A DNA stretch of 64,000 bases from a phage: sequence record PZ386958.1, one strand, 5' to 3'. Of the stretch, positions 1,909-58,575 are shown piece by piece. The notes below the pieces were generated by a model, which had not been told where the DNA came from, made no database searches, and saw nothing but the letters and a program-made list of their open reading frames with translations. Position 1 is the stretch's first letter, and each line of letters opens with the position of its first letter. A program made the translations under genes and the position numbers.

Positions 1909-2238
1909 TTAATCTGCCAACCTTAAATTGAAATTAACACCAAATTTTTCACATACTGCCAACATATACTCAAGGGAAACATTCCCAGTAAGGTGGATTA
2001 TGTTGGATACACGAGCCTGAGAGATACCACAAATTTTAGCAACTTGCTCTTGAGAAAGACCTCTGGATTTAATCTCTCTCTTAAAACGATGTGCAACGAA
2101 ATCTCTCATTTCGTCTACATCCATTGGACAAATATAACTCTCCATTTCATCCTCTCTATCAGCCTCCCAATCATCTTGTGGGGCATAAGGGTCAAAAACC
2201 TCATTCATCTTTCTTCTTCCGTTTGCGTGAAGTGTCAA
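1909..2238 (-). CDS. Helix-turn-helix DNA-binding protein (XRE-like)
   Basis: 109 aa; segment LSQEQVAKICGISQARVSNII is a typical HTH motif. Confidence 0.45.
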   Translation of the reverse strand: MTLHANGRRKMNEVFDPYAPQDDWEADREDEMESYICPMDVDEMRDFVAHRFKREIKSRGLSQEQVAKICGISQARVSNIIHLTGNVSLEYMLAVCEKFGVNFNLRLAD

Positions 2239-4818: not shown

Positions 4819-4879
4819 AAGCCCTCCTATACAAGATATAGTATAAGGTACTCTTCCATGAGCACCTTGTCAATACTAA

Positions 4880-5436
4880 TTAGTGTACCTCATACCAGCT
4901 TTTACCAACCTTACCAGTACCTGTAACAAGTGTTTCTTTCTTAAGACCTAAGTTCTTAGAAGCTTGTCCATAATACCAGTCAGTAACTGCTTTCACTTCT
5001 GCCGTCATACTTTCTGGACATTCCCAACTCGTCTCGTCGTGATAGGAGCACAATAAACGAGCACCTATAGCTGGCTTGCGACCGTTCAACTTCATCAAAC
5101 CTTCGTCAATCATACGACGGCAAGCAAGGTTAATTGCTTCATTCTGAACCTGTGCTTCCGAACTCATCAGGAGGTAGTTCAGTAGTTTATGTGGAGATTT
5201 GCACCATATCCATGCTCCAGCGACCCTGATATAACCACCTTTAGCAATTGAAGAGTTCTTCCCGAAAACCTCTTCCAGAGCCTTTTTAGACGCCTTAAAA
5301 TCGGCTTCTAAGCTATCAAGTAACTTCTTAATCTTTGGCAGACGCATATAGTAAGTTTGTTTAGTCAATGCACCTTCTTCCGTAGATGATGCCTTGATAG
5401 TTTTTGCAAACTTCTCGTCACCTGCACCGAACAATA
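4880..5436 (-). CDS. DNA polymerase (family A, T7 gp5-like), exon 2
   Basis: Begins (L)FGAGDEKFA = end of O-helix/motif B (T7: FLYGAGDEK); contains motif C YHDE and C-terminal GKVGKSWYEVH (T7: GKMGPNWAICH). The track's start M is a TTG codon inside the exon. Confidence 0.8.
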
Positions 5437-5704
5437 CATCTGGTCAATACACTCGCAAGGTGTACCAGTTCTCTTATGAACTTCTCCGCATTTCTACGGA
5501 GTGTCGGACTATATCACGTAGTAGTAATACTACCGTTGCACTTGGGAATGGTCATTAGCTTACCACCCTACTCTACTCAGTTCATACATTAAGTATGCTT
5601 TTCGATAGTCTCTGAACGTTTCTCTTAAGAGGCTTCGCTGCTGATTACCATATCTTTACAGACTTAGGCTTCCAGCAATTCACAACGTTTTACATGCGCC
5701 ACTG
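5437..5704 (-). ncRNA. Group I self-splicing intron (ORF-less, 268 nt) interrupting the DNA polymerase gene
   Basis: RNA strand contains group I R element GUUCAGAGACUA (plus 5606-5617) and S element GAUAUAGUCC (plus 5505-5514) that can pair as P7; internal guide GCGCAU pairs with 5' exon end AUGCGU (terminal U.G); intron ends in G; removal fuses ...AKNGIYA to LLFGAGDEK in frame. Confidence 0.75.
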
Positions 5705-7877
5705 ACGCATAAATGCCATTTTTGGCTTTCTTACGACCTTTTGTAATCTCGTGGAGAAGTTCCTCATCCTGTGTCTCCCTACAACGAACAATATCTTCTT
5801 CCTTGTTCAGACCAAAGTAAATACTGTTCAGTGTATGCGCATCAGTCCCTGTGTAGACTTCATAGAGGTCGTTCTCAGCATCATAACGAAGATACTTGTC
5901 AGTTTCTGGATTAAGATACTTATCGAGATGCTTGCAATAGTATCTGCCATCATCCTGTTTAGTGAACTCTACAAACTCTTTACCCTCAGTTACTGCTTTA
6001 GTGAACTCTTTATCACCCATAAAGTTACAAAGGAGAACTAGCTGGGCTGAGTTCATATCAACGGAGACTACGTTGGTTCCCTCCTCACAAATCCAAACCT
6101 CCCTCATCGGTGCTCCATAGACAGCAGCACCAGACGGTACGTTTACAATGCCATATTGTGTCATACGTCCAGTTGAAGTACCAAACACCATTGCACCAGC
6201 ACTAAGGCGACCATCAGGACGAATCTGGTTCAACCAACCTTTTTCATCATCCTTTGAGTTCTCAATAGTTCTGCGTCGGTGCATCAAAGTGTAGTATTTA
6301 GCAATCTTCTGTCCAAGCTCACCTTCAATCGTATCATAAGATGATTCAGTAAGTTTTGGTGAAGTACGGATTAAGCAAGGCTCAAGCAAATCTGTGTATT
6401 TCTTCACAGACCAGTTATGCTCAATGTACTGTACACCTTCATGTTCAACATAACTCAAACCACACCGCTCAACCATTTCCTGCCACTTAGGATGTTTTGT
6501 AATCATCTTTTTATTGTCTTTGAAACGACAAACTTTGACAGGACGACCATCTGAGTCTTTCTTGTAGTTCCAGTCATCTGGAATCCAACCAACTGATTTC
6601 AAGTAGTCTTTAACAACGGCTACCTGAGTCATACGAGAAACTTCAAACTCAATTGGTGTATATGGTGCATCAATCAAACCTGTGTAGCGACTTGACTCAA
6701 GTTCAAAGTGGTTAACAACGTGGCTGTTATAGTACTTCACAGTCTTGACTGTTTTTACTGGTTTCCAGTCTTTGCATTTTTTGCCAATCTTTGCATTCAA
6801 CTCGTTGCAGATTGCACGAGCATCCTTCATTGCTACAAAGCCTTCCTTGTATTCTTCACCAGTTACAGTGTTGGTTGGCGTATAGCAATTCCTTTTTTCA
6901 ATGTTAAAAATCTTTGTAGTTGGCTTACCAAATGGCTTGATTTCATATGTCTGCATCTCACCGTTACGTACCTGCTGACGATACTTTGTCTTAGGGTACT
7001 TGGTAATTCTCTTCAGTCCATCTGCGTGACCAAATGCTTCAACATACTCATTCCAAGCTTTTGCAAACTCTTCTCCAGTAACTTTACCTTTGGTCTTAAT
7101 AGTTGGAGGTAGATGTGGTTCAACCTCTGAAGCAAGCTCATTAGTCAACTTGTCAAGTTCCTTTACATGGAACTCCATAAGCTCTTTATCAGCTTTCCAA
7201 CCATTGATAGCTTGTTGACTCATCCAGAAAGATGTTTCTTTAGCTCGCATGTAGGTTTCATAAGTGTCTATGCCACACTTCTTAAGCTTGAGATACTCGT
7301 TATCAAGTGCCCGTTTAGTTTTGGCGTTAATACGGATATCTTCTACAACACGAGTGAAGATTTCTGCATTCCACACACCCCAATGCTCAATCTCTGGCTT
7401 ACGAACACCAACACGAGCACCCCATGCAGCCAAGCCATGAGCACCTTTATAACCCTTTGGAGTTGGTCTATCCATCCACTGAACACGAGACTGAATAAGA
7501 GAATCCTGAAAGAAATTACTCCACGGCTTACATTTTGGATTATCAAAGTTCCATAAATCAGGTGCAATGTGATTGAAAACCCACCAGTCATAGCCGAGAC
7601 CATTATGGATGCAAAGACGTTTTGCCTTTAACGCAAATTCAACACCTTCACGTAAGCCGCCCTTGATGTACTTGGTATACTTGTGACCGAGGATAGGCTC
7701 GTCTGTAAAGACCCATACAGGCGGCTCTTCATCGTCAGATTTATAATCTGCGAAAGCCATTACGTGCACTTTAGTGAACTCAAGGAGTAAACCATCAGTT
7801 TCTGTATCACCAACCAAATGTAAGTTTTTAAAATCTACGTTTTCCATTTTTACTCCCTCTAAAATCATTAACCACAT
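5705..7877 (-). CDS. DNA polymerase (family A, T7 gp5-like), exon 1 (3'-5' exonuclease plus N-terminal polymerase domain)
   Basis: Exo I motif DTETDGL near N-terminus; ends with O-helix RKKAKNGIY (T7: RDNAKTFIYG). The track ORF reads 13 codons into the intron before a stop. Confidence 0.8.
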
Positions 7878-7907
7878 ACATTACTGCAAAAAATTATAAA
7901 AAGCAAG

Positions 7908-7930
7908 TTGACAATGTACTTGACAAGGTG
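7908..7930. promoter_or_regulatory. Conserved tandem -35-like element TTGACAATGTACTTGACAAGGTG in divergent intergenic region
   Basis: Two overlapping TTGACA hexamers in AT-rich region between divergent operons; near-identical 23-mer recurs at 56503-56528. Confidence 0.4.
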
Positions 7931-8104
7931 TTAATCTTTGCGAAGTGGGTTTTTACTTAAAAGGTTACTTAACAGTTTAACTATACAGATACTTTAAAAC
8001 TCTTAAAAGATTATTTAATAGCTTTTAAAAAGCTTTAAAGTATAACGTATAGAATACGTTAAGATAAAAGATTAAAACTTAATAGTTACTTAAAAGAGGC
8101 TTAC

Positions 8105-10355: not shown

Positions 10356-12333
10356 AGGTCGTAAATTGAAAGAGGCTGGTCAGTTTATTGGTCATTGTGC
10401 ATGTCCACGTTGTGGTTCATCAGATGCTGGTTCAATCTACCACCATGACGATGATTCTTATTCGATGACTTGCTTTAGCTGTAACAAAGGTTTCCCAGAG
10501 TGGGATTTTGATAAAGGACAAATCGTGAGCACTTATTCTACTGGTTCAGATAACAAAAGCCGTACTTTCCGTGGAATGGATTTAGACGATGTAAAAGAAA
10601 ACCTAGAAGCAATGGACTTGAAAGATAGGAAGATTCCTGCAAAAGTCCTTGAACGCTTAGGTATCAAGGTTGACATTGACAGTGACGGTGAAATTGATGC
10701 GCACTTCTATCCAACTTACAAACGTAATGAAGATGGTAAGCTAGAACATGTTGGCTACCGTGTTCGTCACCGTTACCCAGAAGACCATCCAAAAGAGCAC
10801 CTACGTGGTAAGCTAAAAGACTTTTCTGGTGGTGTTGGGGACATTAAAGGTGAACTGGCAATGTTCGGTTCATGGATTGCTCCAGAAGGTGGTAACCGTC
10901 TATTCATTTGGGAAGGTGAGATGGAATGTGCGACAGCAATCTATATGACTTCTCTTGCGATTAAGGACAAATCTCGTCGTAAGAATTACTGTCACGTATC
11001 TGTTCCATCAGGTGCAAACATTAAGTCTATCAAAGACAACTATCAGTACATCACATCATTTGACGAGATTTACTTGTGTTTTGATAACGATGAAGCAGGT
11101 GCTAAAGCTACCAAAGAAGCTGCTGGTATCCTACCTATTGAGAAGGTTCGTTTATTCCAGTATCCAGAGGGTGTAAAAGACCTTAACGAATGGTGGACAA
11201 AGTTTTATAAAGAGAAAGATACAGTTCTGGAAGGATTCAAGCAGCGTATCTACAATGCACCTCGTTACTGCCCTGCTGGTATCAAGAACTTTGCAGACGG
11301 TTTTGAGGCAATGAAGAATCGTGGTCAGATTCCATTGATTCCTTTCCCAGAATCTTTCGGGGATTTGAACAGACTGACTTATGGTGGTTACGGTTTAGGC
11401 GAGATTACGACTATTGCAGCACCATCTTCAGTAGGTAAGTCAGCTTACACCCGTGAGATGATTTATTCAGCTTGGAAAGAAACTGATTATAATATTGGTG
11501 TAATTCCTGTAGAAGATACCTATGAAGAGTTGATGGAGATGCTCTGTGCAATCCACCTTAGCAAGCAGATTTCTGAGATTCCTTATGATGAACGTGATTG
11601 GGATGAATTGAAGGTGGCACACGCAGAGCTATCTAAAGGTCGTCGTATCCATATCGTTGACCATCAAGGGGCAATTGACCAAGATAACCTGCTGGAGTTT
11701 GTTGACTATCTTGTTAATAGTTTAGACTGTAAGATTATTATTCTTGACCCTATTACGTTAGCTCTGTCACGTTCTGATACGGATGAAGAGGAAGTATTGT
11801 CTGAACTATTGCGTCGTTGCAAACGCTACCAGTATGCACAGGTAAACGTCTGTCACGTTCGTAAGAGTGCAGGTGGTCAGAAAGCTAACTCTGAAGGTGG
11901 AGATATCTCTGAAGAGGATATTAAGGGTTCTGGTGCGTATTTCCAGATTTCCATGAACAACATTCTGTTAATGCGTAACAAGGTTGACCCAGACCCTGTT
12001 AAGAAAAACTTGACAAAAATCAAGTTAACTAAGTGTCGTCGTCATGGTAAGTCAACAGGTATTGCTGGTCATACTTGGTACAATCCAGACACAGGGCGTC
12101 TTATCAAAGCTTCTGGGTGTGGTGTTGACATTGATGGTGCAGCAGAAAATATCCGTCAACAGTTTGGTATTGGTGAAGCTGAAGACCATTATGACGACTC
12201 TTTACCTCATTATGAGGATGAAGTGTTTGACCGTGAGACTGGTGAAGTCTATACTGAAGAACAGCGTCAAAGCTCAATGATTCCACCTGTATTAAGCGAG
12301 GATGCAGATGACTGCCCATTCGAAACTGAGTGA
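10342..12333 (+). CDS. Bifunctional DNA primase-helicase (T7 gp4-like)
   Basis: N-terminal Cys4 zinc ribbon (CACPRCGSSD ... CFSCNKG), TOPRIM-like middle, C-terminal DnaB-type helicase with Walker A GLGEITTIAAPSSVGKSAYT. Confidence 0.8.
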   Translation: MLMSKGRKLKEAGQFIGHCACPRCGSSDAGSIYHHDDDSYSMTCFSCNKGFPEWDFDKGQIVSTYSTGSDNKSRTFRGMDLDDVKENLEAMDLKDRKIPAKVLERLGIKVDIDSDGEIDAHFYPTYKRNEDGKLEHVGYRVRHRYPEDHPKEHLRGKLKDFSGGVGDIKGELAMFGSWIAPEGGNRLFIWEGEMECATAIYMTSLAIKDKSRRKNYCHVSVPSGANIKSIKDNYQYITSFDEIYLCFDNDEAGAKATKEAAGILPIEKVRLFQYPEGVKDLNEWWTKFYKEKDTVLEGFKQRIYNAPRYCPAGIKNFADGFEAMKNRGQIPLIPFPESFGDLNRLTYGGYGLGEITTIAAPSSVGKSAYTREMIYSAWKETDYNIGVIPVEDTYEELMEMLCAIHLSKQISEIPYDERDWDELKVAHAELSKGRRIHIVDHQGAIDQDNLLEFVDYLVNSLDCKIIILDPITLALSRSDTDEEEVLSELLRRCKRYQYAQVNVCHVRKSAGGQKANSEGGDISEEDIKGSGAYFQISMNNILLMRNKVDPDPVKKNLTKIKLTKCRRHGKSTGIAGHTWYNPDTGRLIKASGCGVDIDGAAENIRQQFGIGEAEDHYDDSLPHYEDEVFDRETGEVYTEEQRQSSMIPPVLSEDADDCPFETE

Positions 12334-23677: not shown

Positions 23678-23688
23678 AACTTGACAAG

Positions 23689-23701
23689 GTGGTGTGAGTC
23701 T
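23689..23701 (+). promoter_or_regulatory. CTTGACAAGGTGG promoter-like element
   Basis: Same TTGACAAGGTG core as at 7918 and 56517. Confidence 0.3.
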
Positions 23702-32794: not shown

Positions 32795-32876
32795 AAATGT
32801 TTGACAAGGGGCTTCAAAGCCCCTTAGAATAACCTCACAAAATGATTTATTAACTAACAAAAGAGAGAGTAACAAG

Positions 32877-45599: not shown

Positions 45600-45628
45600 T
45601 CAACAACTTACAAAAAACTTTTAAAAAA

Positions 45629-45665
45629 GTGTTGACAATACCCCTTGACATTGGTAACTTTGTTC
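45629..45665 (+). promoter_or_regulatory. Promoter-like tandem TTGACA boxes (gtgttgacaataccccttgacattggtaact)
   Basis: Two -35-like hexamers in intergenic region. Confidence 0.35.
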
Positions 45666-45819: not shown

Positions 45820-46350
45820 ATGAACAAGTTCAAAGCTATCAACTTCATTCGTTCAAATGCTGTAATGTCAAAGCCTGTTAAAGATACCTATGAATTTCGT
45901 TGCAATGGTGTACACTTTGCAACCATCACTAAATCAGAAAACGGGGCTTATTACGTCCATCGTCGTAATGTTTCTACTGTTGTAGTTTCTCATTTTATGC
46001 AAGCTGTCGCGGAACTTCTCCCGATGTTTTTAGGTCTTTACTTAGATGAGTGTAAAAACGTTCACAACCACGTTAAAAACCTTTTAAACGGTTATAAAAT
46101 GGCTTATGAACGTTCTATCAAGTCACTAAACAAGTTTTACAATGCACCTGAAAATACTGTATCAATAGCCTATGCTGCAAATGGTGAGATGGTAAACTTA
46201 TCCAATGTGGAAGAAATCAAGCTGCATGATTTACGCCCTAGCGGTTACTCTAAGACTCTCGGTGAAGGTTTAACGTTCAATATCAAGAACTTAGAGAAAA
46301 CTTTAAAAGATATTGAAAAAGATATTGACGAGACAACCAAAAATCTGTAA
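45820..46350 (+). CDS. Cassette-array protein
   Basis: 176 aa. Confidence 0.4.
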   Translation: MNKFKAINFIRSNAVMSKPVKDTYEFRCNGVHFATITKSENGAYYVHRRNVSTVVVSHFMQAVAELLPMFLGLYLDECKNVHNHVKNLLNGYKMAYERSIKSLNKFYNAPENTVSIAYAANGEMVNLSNVEEIKLHDLRPSGYSKTLGEGLTFNIKNLEKTLKDIEKDIDETTKNL

Positions 46351-46995: not shown

Positions 46996-47002
46996 TCGAC
47001 GC

Positions 47003-47060
47003 AGCGGGGCTAAATAGCCCCAGATACCTGAACAGCCCCTATTTAAAGGGGCTTTTTTAC
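47003..47060 (+). terminator. Tandem hairpins ending in T-run (cggggctaaatagccccag ... cagcccctatttaaaggggctttttt)
   Basis: Two GC-rich stem-loops, second followed by TTTTTT. Confidence 0.55.
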
Positions 47061-48720
47061 GTCTATGTAATAACCTCTATACAATCCCTTTCCTTTCCTT
47101 TCCAGAATCTATCCCACTAATTCGATAGAATCTATCTCGTACCTTAAAAAGCAATAACTCTATAGTCTACTCTATAACCTTTTATCAAATCAACTTAAAT
47201 ATAAGCCCATAACCCGAAAGGGAAGGGCAACCGTTTAAACGCTCTATAAAGCCCTATAACAGCCTTATCAACCTAACTTAAGGGATTGCATTAACTCACC
47301 CTTAAAAGCTCTTTACAGGGCTTTATAGAGGCTTAAAAGAATCTTATAAGGTTATAAGCTTTATTATCTCGTTAGTATCTTGTGAATATCTAAAAAGGGC
47401 TTGTTAGTGTCTTAAAAGTATGTTATAGGGGCTTAAAAGTTACTTTGAAGTAGCTTAAAAGTTACGTAAAAGGGGCTATAAAGTTACGTAAATACTAGCC
47501 CCCTTAACATTTTCTTAACAATTTCTTAACAAACCCTACATAGTTATACTTTTAAGGCACTTGTTAGCAACTTGTTAGCCCCTTGTTAAATCTCTGTTAA
47601 GACCACGTAAAAGCCTTGTAAGAGTCTTTGACATAGCCTTTAAAGCTCCTGTAAAGCCCTATAAAGAGCTTTCTTCATAGTTGGGGTGTAATTACTAGGA
47701 AGAGGCTTAAAAGAGCTTACAAAGAGCTATAGAGAGCTTTTAAGAGGTATGTTTAGAGAATCACTAAGAGGGAAAGGGAACGATAAGAAAAGAGATAGTG
47801 ACCATGTTAACAGCTTGTTAAAAAGATTAAACACTTGTTAGAAACTTGTTAATTATCTTAATTGGTATTGTTACCAATCCCTACAAAATAACTCTTAAAA
47901 ATTAACTTGTTAGCTCTTGTTAGTCATCTGTTAAGATTCTGTAAAGACTATGTATCAACTGTTAAGAAACTGTTACACCCTTGTTAGTTCTGTTAAGAAT
48001 CTGTTAAGACCTTTGAAGAGTTGTTAAGAAGGTGTGAGAACTGTTAAGAGATTGTTAATGATATTTTAAAATTTTGCAAAGGGGGTGTTAAGGAGCTGTT
48101 AAGGGCTACCAAGCAGATATACATCTTCTACAGATATTTTTCAGTTCCTTCAAAGACCATAAAAAATGACTTGACAGTCTTATTTTATAAAAATTTTAAG
48201 ATTCTGAATAATTACCTATACAGTCTTTCAAAAATACAGGTAGGAACAGGCTTATAAGATACCTTGTTAGTACCGTGTTAGACCTTGTGAGATAAGGTCT
48301 GTAAAGATATTCCTGTTAAGTTTATTAAAACAGTCTATATAGAGGCTTAGTAATACCTAGTGAACAACTATAGAGAGTCACATAGCTAACCTAATGGGTT
48401 ACTGTTAAGTAACACAGGTAACCTAGAGATTAAGAGGTGTATAGGAGCTTCTAAGAGGCTATAGAGAGATGGTTAAGGTGATTGTATAGGTTGTTAAGAA
48501 GGCTTGTTAGAGGGCTTGTTAGAAGGGTTATACAGAGGGCTATTAAGACCACTAGATAGCTACTAAGATACTATATAGTACTATATAACTATATAGAGAG
48601 TAAGATTAAGAAGGTTGTTAAGAAGGATAGATATTTTGTTCACATATGATGGTGACCCAGAGGTTGGGACAACCGATAAAATTTTATAAAAAATATAAAT
48701 TTCGTAAATTTTACTCAATA
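47061..48720. repeat. Non-coding repeat-dense region: 30 or more degenerate copies of (C/T)TGTTA(A/G) plus purine-rich AGAG/TAAGAG and TATATAG runs
   Basis: No ORF of 60 aa or more on either strand; motifs CTTGTTAG, CTGTTAAGA, GGGCTTAAAAGTTAC recur throughout, often in tandem. Confidence 0.6.
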
Positions 48721-56036: not shown

Positions 56037-56263
56037 TTTTCAGTTCTCCTGCGATTTATAATTTTGCTGCAATAGAGAAACGAAGTAAACTCACTGGAAG
56101 AAACCATTAAGTGTTGTTCACTAGATTGAGCCATTGCCCTGAAATACATTCCAGTCAAAGCATCATAGTGACTATTCTTTCCAATTGAGGTTATATAGCC
56201 ATGACTCTTTGCAGTTTGATATAAATCTATAATATCTGCGATTTCTAATTGGGAACTACACAT
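56030..56263 (-). CDS. Hypothetical small protein
   Basis: 77-aa ORF. Confidence 0.3.
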   Translation of the reverse strand: MCSSQLEIADIIDLYQTAKSHGYITSIGKNSHYDALTGMYFRAMAQSSEQHLMVSSSEFTSFLYCSKIINRRRTEKC

Positions 56264-56502
56264 AGATAATCCTCTTGTCTTCTGTAATTTTGAAAGAACA
56301 GGTACAGACCAATTTCAGAGGATGAATAGTAGATTAACTCTACCCTTTTTGATTCCTTACAGTGATTGGTATTCTTACCTTTCTTCGGTTTATTTGATTT
56401 TCTCATTAAGTCTCCTTTGTAGAACAAGGCAGACCTACAGCTTTAAGTAAGATGGTACAGTAATCCATACAACAAGTCAAGAACTATTGCAAGTTAAAAA
56501 AG

Positions 56503-56528
56503 TTGTTGACAAAGTACTTGACAAGGTG
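56503..56528. promoter_or_regulatory. Conserved tandem -35-like element TTGTTGACAAAGTACTTGACAAGGTG in divergent intergenic region
   Basis: Near-identical to 7908-7930. Confidence 0.4.
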
Positions 56529-56655
56529 TAGGCTTATAAATACTTAGAAGATAACTTAAAAGGTTCCTCTAAAAAGGCTATTTAAACAGATATCTTTCTG
56601 GATATCTATCTTTTATCTTAAAAGCCTTTTAAGAGGTCTTATAAGAGGCATACCA

Positions 56656-57027
56656 ATGAAAAACAGAACAAACAAAGGCCAGTTTAAAAAAGGCCAGTCT
56701 GGAAACCCATCTGGAAGACCAAAAGGCTCTCGTAACAAAAGCTCACTCGTAAAAGCTCAACTGACCATTGATAATTCTGCTGAGTTTGCTGCAAAGTTGT
56801 TTGAAGCGATTGTTACAAGGGACGCTGCTAAGCTTGCAGAGTTCGGTTTGACGACTGACGATGTAAACCTGAAGTCGATGATGGAAGCTGGTAAAACTAT
56901 CATGACCCACTCAGCAGGTGAGATGAAAGCAATTGCAGCAGACACTAAGAAGACCCCTGATAATGGTGGTCAGTCTCAGACAGATAACAAACCAACGTTC
57001 TCTGCTGTAGCGACTCTCAAAAAATAA
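56656..57027 (+). CDS. Small protein with AT-hook-like motif (KGQSGNPSGRPKGSRNK)
   Basis: 123 aa; GRP core in basic, glycine-rich N-terminus. Confidence 0.4.
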   Translation: MKNRTNKGQFKKGQSGNPSGRPKGSRNKSSLVKAQLTIDNSAEFAAKLFEAIVTRDAAKLAEFGLTTDDVNLKSMMEAGKTIMTHSAGEMKAIAADTKKTPDNGGQSQTDNKPTFSAVATLKK

Positions 57028-57109
57028 TTTTAAAAGGTGTTGACAGACTCTACAAAGTTGCTCTAAAGTCTGTCACATCAACAAACAAAATGAGAGAAGA
57101 GAGTAAAAT

Positions 57110-58486
57110 ATGAGCGAATTATTTAAACATGCGCACCTTCATGCAGGTCGAACTGAAAATGGTGCTGTAAACCATACTTCATCAATGTCTGCTCTTGTAG
57201 ACTTTTACAAAGCTGCTGGTTCAAGCCGTAGCAACGTAGAAATCTTACCAGACCTGTTCTACAAAGCTTTGCGTGAGGATGTTGATGTTGCAGTTCGTAT
57301 TTTGCTTCATATGCGAGATGTGCGAGAAGGTATGGGTGAGCGTAAAGCCTTCAGAACTGTTTTGCTTCAAGCAATTGAAGATAAAGTTTTAGAGCCTACA
57401 CAGGTTCTTCGCATTATGGATAAGATTGCAGAACTTGGTCGTTTTGATGACTTCAAAATCTTCGTAGGTACTCGTTTCGAGACGGATGCCTTCAAACATT
57501 TAGAAGCAGCATTACTAGACCCTGCAACAGCAGGTTTGGCAGCTAAGTGGTTACCACGAGTCAAACCACGTCATAAGCAGTTTGTAAAACGTTTCTGCAA
57601 GTTTGCCAACTTGAGTGAGAAAGAGTACCGCACACTGTTATCTGCACTGTCTGATACAGTTGAGCAAAAAATCTCTGCTAATGAGTTTGGTAAGATTGAC
57701 TACAGCAAGATTCCTTCACTTGCTGCTGCACGTTACCAAAAACTGTTTAACCGTAAAGATGGAGAACGCTACAAAGCTTATATTGAGTCTTTATCAAAAG
57801 GTGAGGCTAAGATTAACGCTGGTGCTGTTTACCCATACGATGTGATTAAGTCTATCAAGCATGGTAATGCAGATGTTGCCAATGAGCAGTGGAAAGCACT
57901 ACCAAACTGGATGGCAGAAGGTGAGAACATCTTGTGTATGACTGATGTTTCAAGCTCAATGTCTTGGGTGAATCTTGGCTCAATCACCGCCCTTGATATT
58001 GGTGTATCACTTGCCTTGTATGTAGCAGAACGCAATACAGGCTGCTTTAAGAATGAGTTAATGGTTTACTCAACAAACCCTCACTTCATCGAACTGAGTG
58101 GTGATTTACGAAATCGTCATCGTCAGGTGATGCGACACGTTGAATATGGTTCAACTAACTTACAAGCAGCTTTTGACCGCATTCTTGAGGTAGGTAAGAG
58201 AAACAACTTGACTCAGAAAGATATGCCAAGTAAGCTTATTATCTTCTCTGATATGGAGTTCAATCAGGTTGATGGTGCAAATGGTCGTACAAACTTTGAA
58301 GCAATTCAGAGTAAGTACAAAAAAGCTGGATACGAAATGCCTCAACTGGTATTCTGGTACTTAGCAAACCGTAATGGTACTTGCGAAGTGTCTGTTAAGG
58401 ATAACGGTGTAGCAATGGTATCAGGGTTCTCTCCAGCCACTTTAAAAGCTCTGCTTGGTGGTGAGAAGTTTGACCAATCAGCGTAA
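57110..58486 (+). CDS. von Willebrand factor A (vWA) domain protein with N-terminal helical domain (possible TROVE/Ro60-like or DUF2828-like)
   Basis: 458 aa; MIDAS motif DVSSS in LCMTDVSSSMSW; N-terminal 270 aa helical; directly upstream of tRNA cluster. Confidence 0.45.
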   Translation: MSELFKHAHLHAGRTENGAVNHTSSMSALVDFYKAAGSSRSNVEILPDLFYKALREDVDVAVRILLHMRDVREGMGERKAFRTVLLQAIEDKVLEPTQVLRIMDKIAELGRFDDFKIFVGTRFETDAFKHLEAALLDPATAGLAAKWLPRVKPRHKQFVKRFCKFANLSEKEYRTLLSALSDTVEQKISANEFGKIDYSKIPSLAAARYQKLFNRKDGERYKAYIESLSKGEAKINAGAVYPYDVIKSIKHGNADVANEQWKALPNWMAEGENILCMTDVSSSMSWVNLGSITALDIGVSLALYVAERNTGCFKNELMVYSTNPHFIELSGDLRNRHRQVMRHVEYGSTNLQAAFDRILEVGKRNNLTQKDMPSKLIIFSDMEFNQVDGANGRTNFEAIQSKYKKAGYEMPQLVFWYLANRNGTCEVSVKDNGVAMVSGFSPATLKALLGGEKFDQSA

Positions 58487-58540: not shown

Positions 58541-58575
58541 TATTGACAATGTGTTTAATACCCTTTAATATGTTC
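58541..58575 (+). promoter_or_regulatory. Promoter-like element (gggtattgacaatgtgtttaataccctttaatatg)
   Basis: TTGACA then TAATAT-like box at appropriate spacing upstream of tRNA cluster. Confidence 0.35.

Follow-up and report, generated by a model that had tools for sequence, protein, structure and literature searches.

A proximal UP-element subsite and an extended -10 motif (TGn) are found in sigma-70 promoters such as the strong early promoters of coliphages. In lambdoid phages and 434, the operators of HTH_3 repressors of the Cro/CI type, such as ACAA-N6-TTGT, sit between the -35 and -10 boxes. At lambda PR', a second -35-like hexamer, TTGACT, is bound by sigma region 4 and serves a sigma-dependent pause and the loading of Q. 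Here we describe a 23-bp element with two TTGACA hexamers that is found at both divergent gene junctions of a 64,000-nt stretch of phage DNA (sequence record PZ386958.1, analysed in full and hereafter called the window), and that may combine the core of a sigma-70 promoter with a binding site for a phage protein.

The window is 97-98% identical to many Felixounavirus phages of Escherichia, Salmonella and Shigella; judged by its sequence, the source phage is a Felixounavirus, a Felix O1-like myovirus of the subfamily Ounavirinae. It carries 25 tRNA genes and four transcription blocks. At the first junction (J1), the leftward DNA polymerase gene diverges from a rightward unit in which a gp97-like gene is followed by genes for a dNMP kinase and a primase/helicase. 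At the second (J2), a leftward block of small genes and the lysin diverges from a rightward unit that begins with a DUF5681 gene and a Ro60-like gene and continues through the tRNAs into the structural genes. In Felix O1, J1 and J2 have their counterparts at the 96/97 and 40/41 gene junctions. Divergent promoters were assumed at both in the paper on that genome, which found a single one ('P41', TTGACA(N15)TATAGG) and nothing further promoter-like in the 40-41 or 96-97 regions, and which stated that the temporal control of transcription was unknown (PMC3185647).

Each of the known systems resembles these junctions in part. With UP-element/extended -10 promoters they share an A-tract, a perfect TTGACA, a spacer of 17-18 bp, a TG and TAnnnT, in which the key A is at -11 and the key T at -7, as well as a position upstream of a transcription unit and conservation across genera; they differ in keeping a second TTGACAA in the spacer, in their weak -10 boxes and in the J2 TG, which abuts the -10 box. 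As in lambdoid and 434 operators, the second box occupies the spacer, a position at which bound protein would obstruct RNA polymerase (RNAP); the central bases of the near-palindrome formed by the paired boxes are not conserved; an HTH_3 protein is encoded by the phage; and several promoters share the site. Unlike those operators, the repeat is formally direct, its half-sites are 12-13 bp apart and equal the -35 consensus, and binding is only predicted; the source phage, moreover, is virulent and has no lysogeny module. Like lambda PR', each promoter has two -35-type hexamers, the second of which is not used for initiation. The lambda hexamer, however, lies downstream of the -10 box and next to a -10-like pause element, whereas here the second box is upstream of the -10 box and no -10-like pause element is evident. 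The elements described here are not of the PR' type.

A tandem TTGACA pair recurs at three sites

The two 23-mers, TTGACAATGTACTTGACAAGGTG at 7908-7930 in J1 and TTGACAAAGTACTTGACAAGGTG at 56506-56528 in J2, are both on the + strand and differ at one position. Nothing else in the window matches at up to three mismatches, and 100 dinucleotide shuffles produced no match at all. In both, the hexamers are arranged in tandem, 12 bp from start to start with a 6-bp gap. A third tandem pair, TTGACAATACCCCTTGACA at 45632-45650, has a period of 13 bp. The same three sites are the only tandem pairs in the related whole genome of ASO1A (87.6 kb), and about 0.15 pairs at 12-13-bp spacing would be expected by our own estimate from hexamer density. 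TTGACA as such is also over-represented (99 copies against 65.8 ± 7.0 expected). An IMG/VR pattern scan for TTGACAN5CTTGACAA had unrelated contigs among the matches listed.

These results bear on a first-pass annotation of the window, made from its letters alone. The near-identity of the two 23-mers, which it reported, is confirmed, and the window-wide motif search that it proposed finds only those two; the third tandem pair had been overlooked. The hexamers, described there as overlapping, are separate. The core of the element, TTGACAAGGTG, placed at 23689, is a single copy at 23681-23691 (+), with a further exact copy at 4863-4873 (-), and TTGACAAGGGG starts at 32801 rather than 32804.

Several single-box and other TTGACA sites have features of their own. 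Terminator-like hairpins lie within promoter spacers at 32801-32830 (TTGACA-AGGGGCTTCAAAGCCCCT-TAGAAT) and at 58543-58571 (GGGTATTGACAATGTGTTTAATACCC-TTTAATAT). At the third doubled site, a hairpin CCCCTTGA...TCGAGGGG spans the second box and the -10 box. Two abutting hexamers, TTGACATTGACA at 10670-10681 (+), lie inside the primase/helicase gene and are probably a coding coincidence.

The first hexamer is in register with a conserved -10 box

We scanned the window for every perfect TTGACA with TAnnnT 16-18 bp downstream. About two dozen sites were obtained, mostly intergenic, and at most of them an A-tract, AAAAAG(t)nG, immediately precedes TTGACA, resembling the proximal UP-element subsite. 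All three doubled sites show this anatomy at their first TTGACA, with an A-tract upstream (AAAAAG just 5' of the hexamer in J1, AAAAAAG in J2) and TAnnnT at N17 or N18. The pattern of A-tract, TTGACA, N17/18 and TAnnnT is found at about 20 further sites in the window.

J1 and J2 were aligned across Felixounavirus, Suspvirus and Mooglevirus, and IMG/VR added 21 J1 and 27 J2 sequences, including lineages L185 and L186. What a sigma-70 promoter would be expected to retain is retained. The -35 box is a perfect TTGACA at 7908, 56506 and 45632 and is invariant in all relatives; a -10 box with A2 and T6 lies 16-18 bp away at the three sites in every lineage; and all three sites point into + strand gene blocks. 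The inner bases of the -10 box vary across the three genera and two metagenomic lineages, with TAnnnT kept at N17/18. At J2 the variants are TAGGCT, TAGCCT, TAAGTT and TAGTGT; only the T, the A and the last T are fixed, and this hexamer therefore bears the signature of a -10 box. The third site, upstream of the open reading frame (ORF) at 45820-46350, is kept in SUSP1, where the -10 box is TACATT, and in the Mooglevirus SFPB, where it is TAGATT; N17 separates either box from the first hexamer. By this comparison, which shows the promoter anatomy, the first TTGACA at all three sites behaves as a sigma-70 -35 box. The predicted rightward starts are at ~7943-7945 for the J1 promoter, P_R1, and at ~56540-56542 for the J2 promoter, P_R2; each would serve the rightward unit of its junction.

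The first-pass annotation had proposed a shared early promoter architecture with a conserved GGTG. The architecture is indeed shared, with TAnnnT 17-18 bp from the first TTGACA, and the TG is kept, but the other bases of that tetramer vary (GGTG, GCTG, CGTG, GATG), and 'early' is unproven: by reverse-transcription PCR, Felix O1 genes 41, 42 and 97-99 fall in a class that peaks at 25 min (PMC3185647). Its reading of the second hexamer as another -35 box did not hold either, as detailed below.

The second hexamer is conserved without a -10 box of its own

Sequence variation around the paired hexamers falls between and after them. Among 22 Felixounavirus genomes, the only variable positions within the 75 nt from 7875 to 7949 are 7916-7918, in the centre of the J1 linker. 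In the 28 J2 sequences, the two bases just after the second TTGACAA (56525-56526) vary, as does most of the linker (Table 1). The comparison thus shows that both hexamers are constrained and that the linker is free.

If each TTGACA had its own -10 box and start, the element would hold two overlapping promoters offset by 12 nt. Existing annotations suggest such an arrangement: the ASO1A GenBank record builds its consensus-matched promoters on the first hexamer in J1 but on the second in J2, P41 of Felix O1 was described with an N15 spacer, and J2 has AATACT 15 bp past the second hexamer. We regard this as very unlikely. In J1 and at 45632, the interval 15-19 bp past the second box contains no nAnnnT hexamer and nothing else resembling a -10 box; the weak J2 candidate has a poor spacer length and reads AACACT in other genera; and the register of the conserved TAnnnT is in every case that of the first box. 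A second promoter in register with the second hexamer was rejected because no -10 box follows that hexamer. Since the second TTGACAA is invariant without a -10 box of its own while the linker varies, it is selected for something else, and the alignments indicate that the two boxes have different roles.

The second box might instead have no function, being a 12-bp slippage duplication spread by gene conversion. The Felixounavirus J1 and J2 elements are identical at 22 of 23 positions, linker included, which suggests recent exchange. The Mooglevirus linkers, however, are unrelated to each other (AATCAC and TTCCTC) while both boxes are intact, and across 28 sequences and at least five lineages substitutions fall in the linker or the flanks and never in a box. 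Preservation of the third site in three genera, at a different spacing, also speaks against a functionless repeat, which we consider the least probable of the explanations.

A more serious alternative is that the second TTGACAA is an additional docking site for sigma-70 region 4 and that no phage regulator is involved. Docking would raise the local occupancy of RNAP, or hold a second, unproductive polymerase, and thereby tune the strength of promoters with weak -10 boxes and a heavy reliance on -35 contacts. In favour of docking, all 28 J2 sequences match the -35 consensus exactly at the second box, and the 11-mer TTGACAAGGTG is the only -35-like element at two sites, 23681 and 4873 (-). The -10 boxes of the three doubled promoters are, moreover, the weakest of the set (three of six consensus matches), and a spacing of 12 or 13 bp would easily be tolerated. 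With no -10 box after the second box, however, binding there would be unproductive, and relatives with an equally weak -10 box, for example Arno162 with TAGGCT, use one box. Our literature search for a promoter helped by a -35 copy in its spacer found none, and we know of no documented case. Docking is thus possible but, in our estimation, somewhat doubtful.

Viewed as a unit, TTGACAA-N5-TTGACAA is formally a direct repeat. TTGACAA differs little from its reverse complement, however, and the pair can therefore also be read as a near-palindrome (TTGnCAA-N5-TTGnCAA), in which 12 of the 14 arm positions match the reverse complement and the centre varies. The longer palindrome CTTGACAAG was rejected as the conserved unit; its outer C...G is broken in Mooglevirus and in L186, and TTGACAA alone is fixed. 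The reverse strand of the 23-mer reads TTGTCAA-N5-TTGTCAA, and the adjoining leftward TATAAT of the window is not kept in other genera.

Known regulatory motifs did not fit the 23-mer. Direct repeats of the Pho box, ArcA or OmpR type were rejected on the 12-13-bp period and on the lack of conservation of the nearby TATAAT; Pho-box and OmpR-family sites have 7-bp repeats with an 11-bp period that end about 10 bp upstream of a -10 box. A T4 MotA-box middle promoter, in which TGCTTtA centred at -30 replaces the -35 box, was rejected because these promoters have a perfect -35 box and because the second box, with its centre near -21, differs in sequence. The consensus sequences of sigma-54, sigma-32, CRP, FNR and IHF, compared by eye, gave no fit.

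Table 1. Coordinates of promoter elements, leaders and selected genes in the window. Numbers of sequences refer to the alignments described in the text; SD, Shine-Dalgarno sequence.
Feature	Coordinates	Strand	Description
J1 first TTGACA, -35 of P_R1	7908-7913	+	Invariant in 22 Felixounavirus sequences, Suspvirus and Mooglevirus
J1 linker ATGTAC	7914-7919	+	Differs in every genus
J1 second TTGACAA	7920-7926	+	In the spacer, about -24 to -18; invariant in all J1 sequences
J1 extended -10, TGt + TAATCT	7929-7937	+	TG + TA(A/G)TCT, 18 bp from first hexamer, 5/5 sequences
J1 leader	7944-8104	+	~160 nt, AT-rich; CTTAAnAG at 7956, 7968, 8002, 8033, 8078 and 8089; hairpin 8044-8060
P_L1, DNA polymerase promoter	7878-7906	-	TTGCTT 7906-7901, 17-bp spacer, TAATGT 7883-7878
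J2 first TTGACA, -35 of P_R2	56506-56511	+	Invariant in 28/28; TAnnnT 17 bp downstream in all
J2 linker AAGTAC	56512-56517	+	56512-56516 all variable among 28 sequences
J2 second TTGACAA	56518-56524	+	In the spacer, -23 to -17; invariant in 28/28
J2 TG + -10 TAGGCT	56527-56534	+	TG invariant in 28 sequences
J2 leader	56541-56655	+	~115 nt, AT-rich; CTTAAAAG-type repeats; hairpin 56588-56607
J2 leftward promoter, TTGACT-N17-TACCAT	56452-56480	-	From a consensus scan; identical in 5/5 sequences, three genera
Third doubled-box promoter	45623-45660	+	A-tract; TTGACA 45632-45637; 7-nt linker; TTGACA 45645-45650; TGg + TAACTT 45652-45660
Single TTGACAAGGTG after nrdD stop	23681-23691	+	TAGGCT at N18; overlapped by a terminator hairpin; ASO1A annotates a terminator there
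Single promoter between rIIA and rIIB	32801-32830	+	TTGACA, spacer hairpin, TAGAAT; annotated promoter in ASO1A
Single TTGACAAGGTG past the end of the DNA polymerase gene	4863-4873	-	TACCTT at N17
XRE/Cro-type helix-turn-helix protein	1909-2238	-	Pfam HTH_3 (PF01381), 3.5e-10; phrog_1373 'transcriptional regulator'
Conserved 53-aa ORF	56248-56409	-	phrog_8138; unannotated in many records

Leftward promoters adjoin two of the three doubled boxes

Both junctions also have leftward promoters (Table 1). That of the DNA polymerase gene, P_L1, reads TTGCTT-N17-TA(A/G)(T/G)GT in 5/5 sequences, with a spacer that varies between genera, and is followed by the SD sequence GAGGGAG and an ATG. The -35 boxes of P_L1 and P_R1 stand back to back, 1 bp apart, so the A-rich stretch of J1 serves both promoters.

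This proximity raises the question of whether the doubled box works leftward, as an upstream activator or UP-type site, in which case the first and second boxes would lie at about -40 and -52 of the DNA polymerase promoter. Besides the J1 leftward -35 box (TTGCTT, 7906-7901), 1 bp from the first box, J2 offers TTGTCA-N18-TGcAATAGT, which uses the reverse complement of the first box. The geometries of J1 and J2 differ, however, and the sequence is unlike the A/T tracts of UP elements. At the third doubled site no leftward gene or promoter adjoins the pair, the upstream ORF being on the same strand, a point in favour of assigning the second box to the rightward promoters. A leftward role is therefore very improbable. 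A leftward promoter built on the reverse complement of the second hexamer was rejected, as N17 reads TTTTTA at all three sites.

The second box was gained in one clade

More distant relatives have one box at the homologous junctions: Kolesnikvirus phages of Erwinia have a single TTGACA-N17-TACATT, Pectobacterium phage Arno162 a single TTGACA-N17-TAGGCT and Yersinia phage P778, at J2, a single TTGACA-N17-TAAAGT. Because these distant Ounavirinae have one box, the second is a derived trait of the group whose hosts are Escherichia, Salmonella, Shigella and Citrobacter, and the doubling, which the comparison shows to have arisen within that one clade, has been kept across at least three genera (Felixounavirus, Suspvirus, Mooglevirus). 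P778 J2 (L015 490-530) also has an inverted -35 pair, TGTCAA-GAC-TTGACA, that is not tandem and forms a perfect palindrome, GTCAAG-A-CTTGAC.

The doubling is absent from the searched literature and from existing annotations. P41 (Whichard et al. 2010) is the same locus as J2, and the J1 promoter annotated in GenBank record MZ726791 (7908-7935) begins at the first box. These annotations rely on different hexamers and different -10 guesses at the two junctions and mention neither the doubling nor its conservation. That J1 and J2 are assigned promoters on different hexamers in the record of a close relative shows that the doubling had gone unrecognised.

The phage encodes one recognisable regulator, an XRE/Cro-type helix-turn-helix (HTH) protein (Table 1). 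It is 99-109 aa long, the ATG at 2208 as the probable start giving 99 aa, and it has a sub-threshold Pfam match to sigma-70 region 4 (1.4e-4). With tblastn, the protein is found in 259 records, all from Felixouna-, Susp- or Mooglevirus, the doubled-box clade, and in none of the Erwinia, Pectobacterium, Hafnia and Yersinia relatives that gp97 and DUF5681 queries detect. Its gene belongs to a six-gene cassette between the DHFR and DNA ligase genes (1909-2800, - strand; ASO1A genes 080-085). Kolesnikvirus Fifi318 has a single gene at this position and lacks the cassette, and no HTH protein was found among the small proteins of this phage. A sequence search of the PDB with the HTH protein returned generic XRE-family matches only, with nothing on specificity. 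As would be expected of an HTH_3 protein and its operator, protein and site are co-distributed, through one evolutionary event. The first-pass annotation had offered a site for a common regulator as an alternative to a promoter; the second hexamer may be such a site, with weak support from the clade-specific HTH protein, which shares the phyletic distribution of the doubled box.

The rightward leaders carry conserved repeats

Downstream of the predicted starts, both leaders contain repeats of the CTTAAnAG type, and the repeats noted in the first-pass annotation as common to the two regions are real. CTTAAAAG occurs 27 times in the window, three times in J1 and three in J2, against 6.0 ± 2.5 expected; 0/100 shuffles reach 27. 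ACTTAAAAGGTT lies 47 nt past the first hexamer in J1 and 48 nt past it in J2. The sixth base of the octamers changes between genera, and CTT...AG is fixed. Related octamers, CTTAACAG and CTTTAAAG, are present in the same leaders of Kolesnikvirus, Arno162 and P778, single-box relatives, indicating that the leader motif predates the doubled box.

The leaders themselves are strongly conserved. That of J1 is at least 99% identical in 162 phage records, and the density of variable sites in J1 is 0.054, compared with 0.152 and 0.079 in the flanking coding sequences. In Mooglevirus, J1 DNA is 82-85% identical, versus 61-63% for the adjacent protein. In two Mooglevirus genomes, a C-G pair of the J1 hairpin at 8044-8060, AACGTAT-AGA-ATACGTT, is replaced by U-A, a compensatory change. 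The J2 leader is nearly invariant across genera and has a predicted fold of -28.4 kcal/mol (z = -2.88) in which the repeats pair together in a long stem; it includes the hairpin or palindrome AGATATC-TTTCTG-GATATCT at 56588-56607. The only Rfam families in the window are tRNAs and a group I intron; none was found in J1, J2 or 47-48.7 kb. A more remote reading of a promoter followed by a near-invariant repeat leader is a transcription-primed origin of replication, by analogy with T4 oriF/oriG.

A separate array of repeats occupies 47000-48700, a 1.7-kb region where two gene blocks converge and where no ORF reaches 60 aa. Octamers arranged in phase (CTTAAAAG, CTATAAAG and CTTTACAG) extend over about 47300-47740 and are followed by 32 TGTTA(A/G) direct repeats with sharp 11-bp periodicity (18.8/kb, compared with 1.4/kb elsewhere). 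The related records MW481326 and OL656108 annotate a direct terminal repeat of 581-618 bp equivalent to ~47498-48100 of the window, which places the physical genome ends within the array. With their 11-bp spacing, the TGTTA repeats are reminiscent of ArcA-P sites; a role in packaging or replication is equally possible.

Genes next to the junctions

Two gene starts define the limits of the intergenic regions. The DNA polymerase gene most likely starts at the ATG at 7846, after the SD sequence GAGGGAG, and not at 7877, so that J1 spans 7847-8104. At J2, the conserved 53-aa ORF fills 56248-56409, and the intergenic region is therefore 56410-56655. Both regions are divergent junctions, as had been proposed, with limits revised from 7878-8104 and 56264-56655.

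The DNA polymerase gene appears to be split by an intron in the source phage, as an Rfam group I intron match at 5484-5767 (- strand; 63.3 bits, the gathering score being 50; E = 1e-13) sits between ORFs 5664-7877 (737 aa) and 4880-5434 (184 aa). In ASO1A the DNA polymerase is a single coding sequence of 2721 nt. The first gene of the J2 rightward unit encodes the DUF5681 protein, which has a basic N-terminus, GNPSGRPKG; this segment of the unit (56656-58486, +) also contains the gene for the Ro60-like DUF2828/DUF7788 'RNA-binding protein', directly 5' of the 25-tRNA cluster. In a preprint on phage Bas63, a Ro60-like protein was suggested to counter the ppl defence system (PMC11482910).

A putative operator inside a predicted sigma-70 promoter

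We propose that the 23-bp element comprises the core of a rightward promoter of the host sigma-70 type together with a separately selected, operator-like site for a phage protein, and give this reading a probability of roughly 0.5. In such a promoter, a UP-like A-tract, the first TTGACA as the -35 box, a 17-18-bp spacer, a TG and a weak TAnnnT -10 box would follow one another. Transcription would start about 7 nt past the -10 box, at roughly 7944 and 56541, and the transcript would then cross the long, conserved, AT-rich leader, in which the CTTAAnAG repeats lie. At about -24 to -17, the place where repressor operators usually sit, a protein would bind the second TTGACAA. A phage protein that binds TTGACAA-N5-TTGACAA could, once made, shut down or tune the three promoters, and the leading candidate for this binder would be the clade-specific HTH protein. 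Transcription starting here and protein binding at the second box we infer from comparison; the identity of the binder is a guess.

Several observations weigh against this proposal. The usual targets of XRE proteins are clear inverted repeats of 14-20 bp, and a rigid dimer would have difficulty with copies spaced by 12 bp at two sites and by 13 bp at the third. The perfect match of the second box to the -35 consensus would be coincidental if an unrelated HTH protein bound it, and fits sigma-70 region 4 at least equally well. Because the shared distribution of the HTH protein and the doubled box traces to a single evolutionary event, their co-occurrence is weak evidence, and many other clade-specific genes have the same distribution. 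With respect to the promoters, the -10 boxes match only three of six consensus positions, and the J2 TG abuts the hexamer without the usual one-base gap. The searched literature yielded no start-site or transcriptome study of Ounavirinae, and the promoters of Felix O1-like phages are therefore assigned here by comparison. Our best guess places the operator slightly above sigma docking, which is a close rival.

A bolder version of the operator proposal, in which the doubled box is the operator of a phage protein that reads the host -35 consensus, with the HTH protein at 1909-2238 as the candidate, is unlikely on present evidence. Were it true, the HTH protein would compete with sigma for -35 boxes and so time the shut-off of three master rightward promoters; host promoters might be hit as well, and the timing mechanism would be new for Felix O1-like phages. 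If, at the other extreme, the second box only modifies promoter strength, the doubled promoters would be a minor variation on ordinary ones.

For Felix O1, a classic Salmonella typing and biocontrol phage, and its relatives, these comparisons define two master divergent control regions at base level, each with predicted back-to-back promoters. They may be useful for engineering Felix O1-like phages and for mending inconsistent promoter annotations, and the second box, together with the 99-aa HTH protein, offers a candidate route to the missing regulator.

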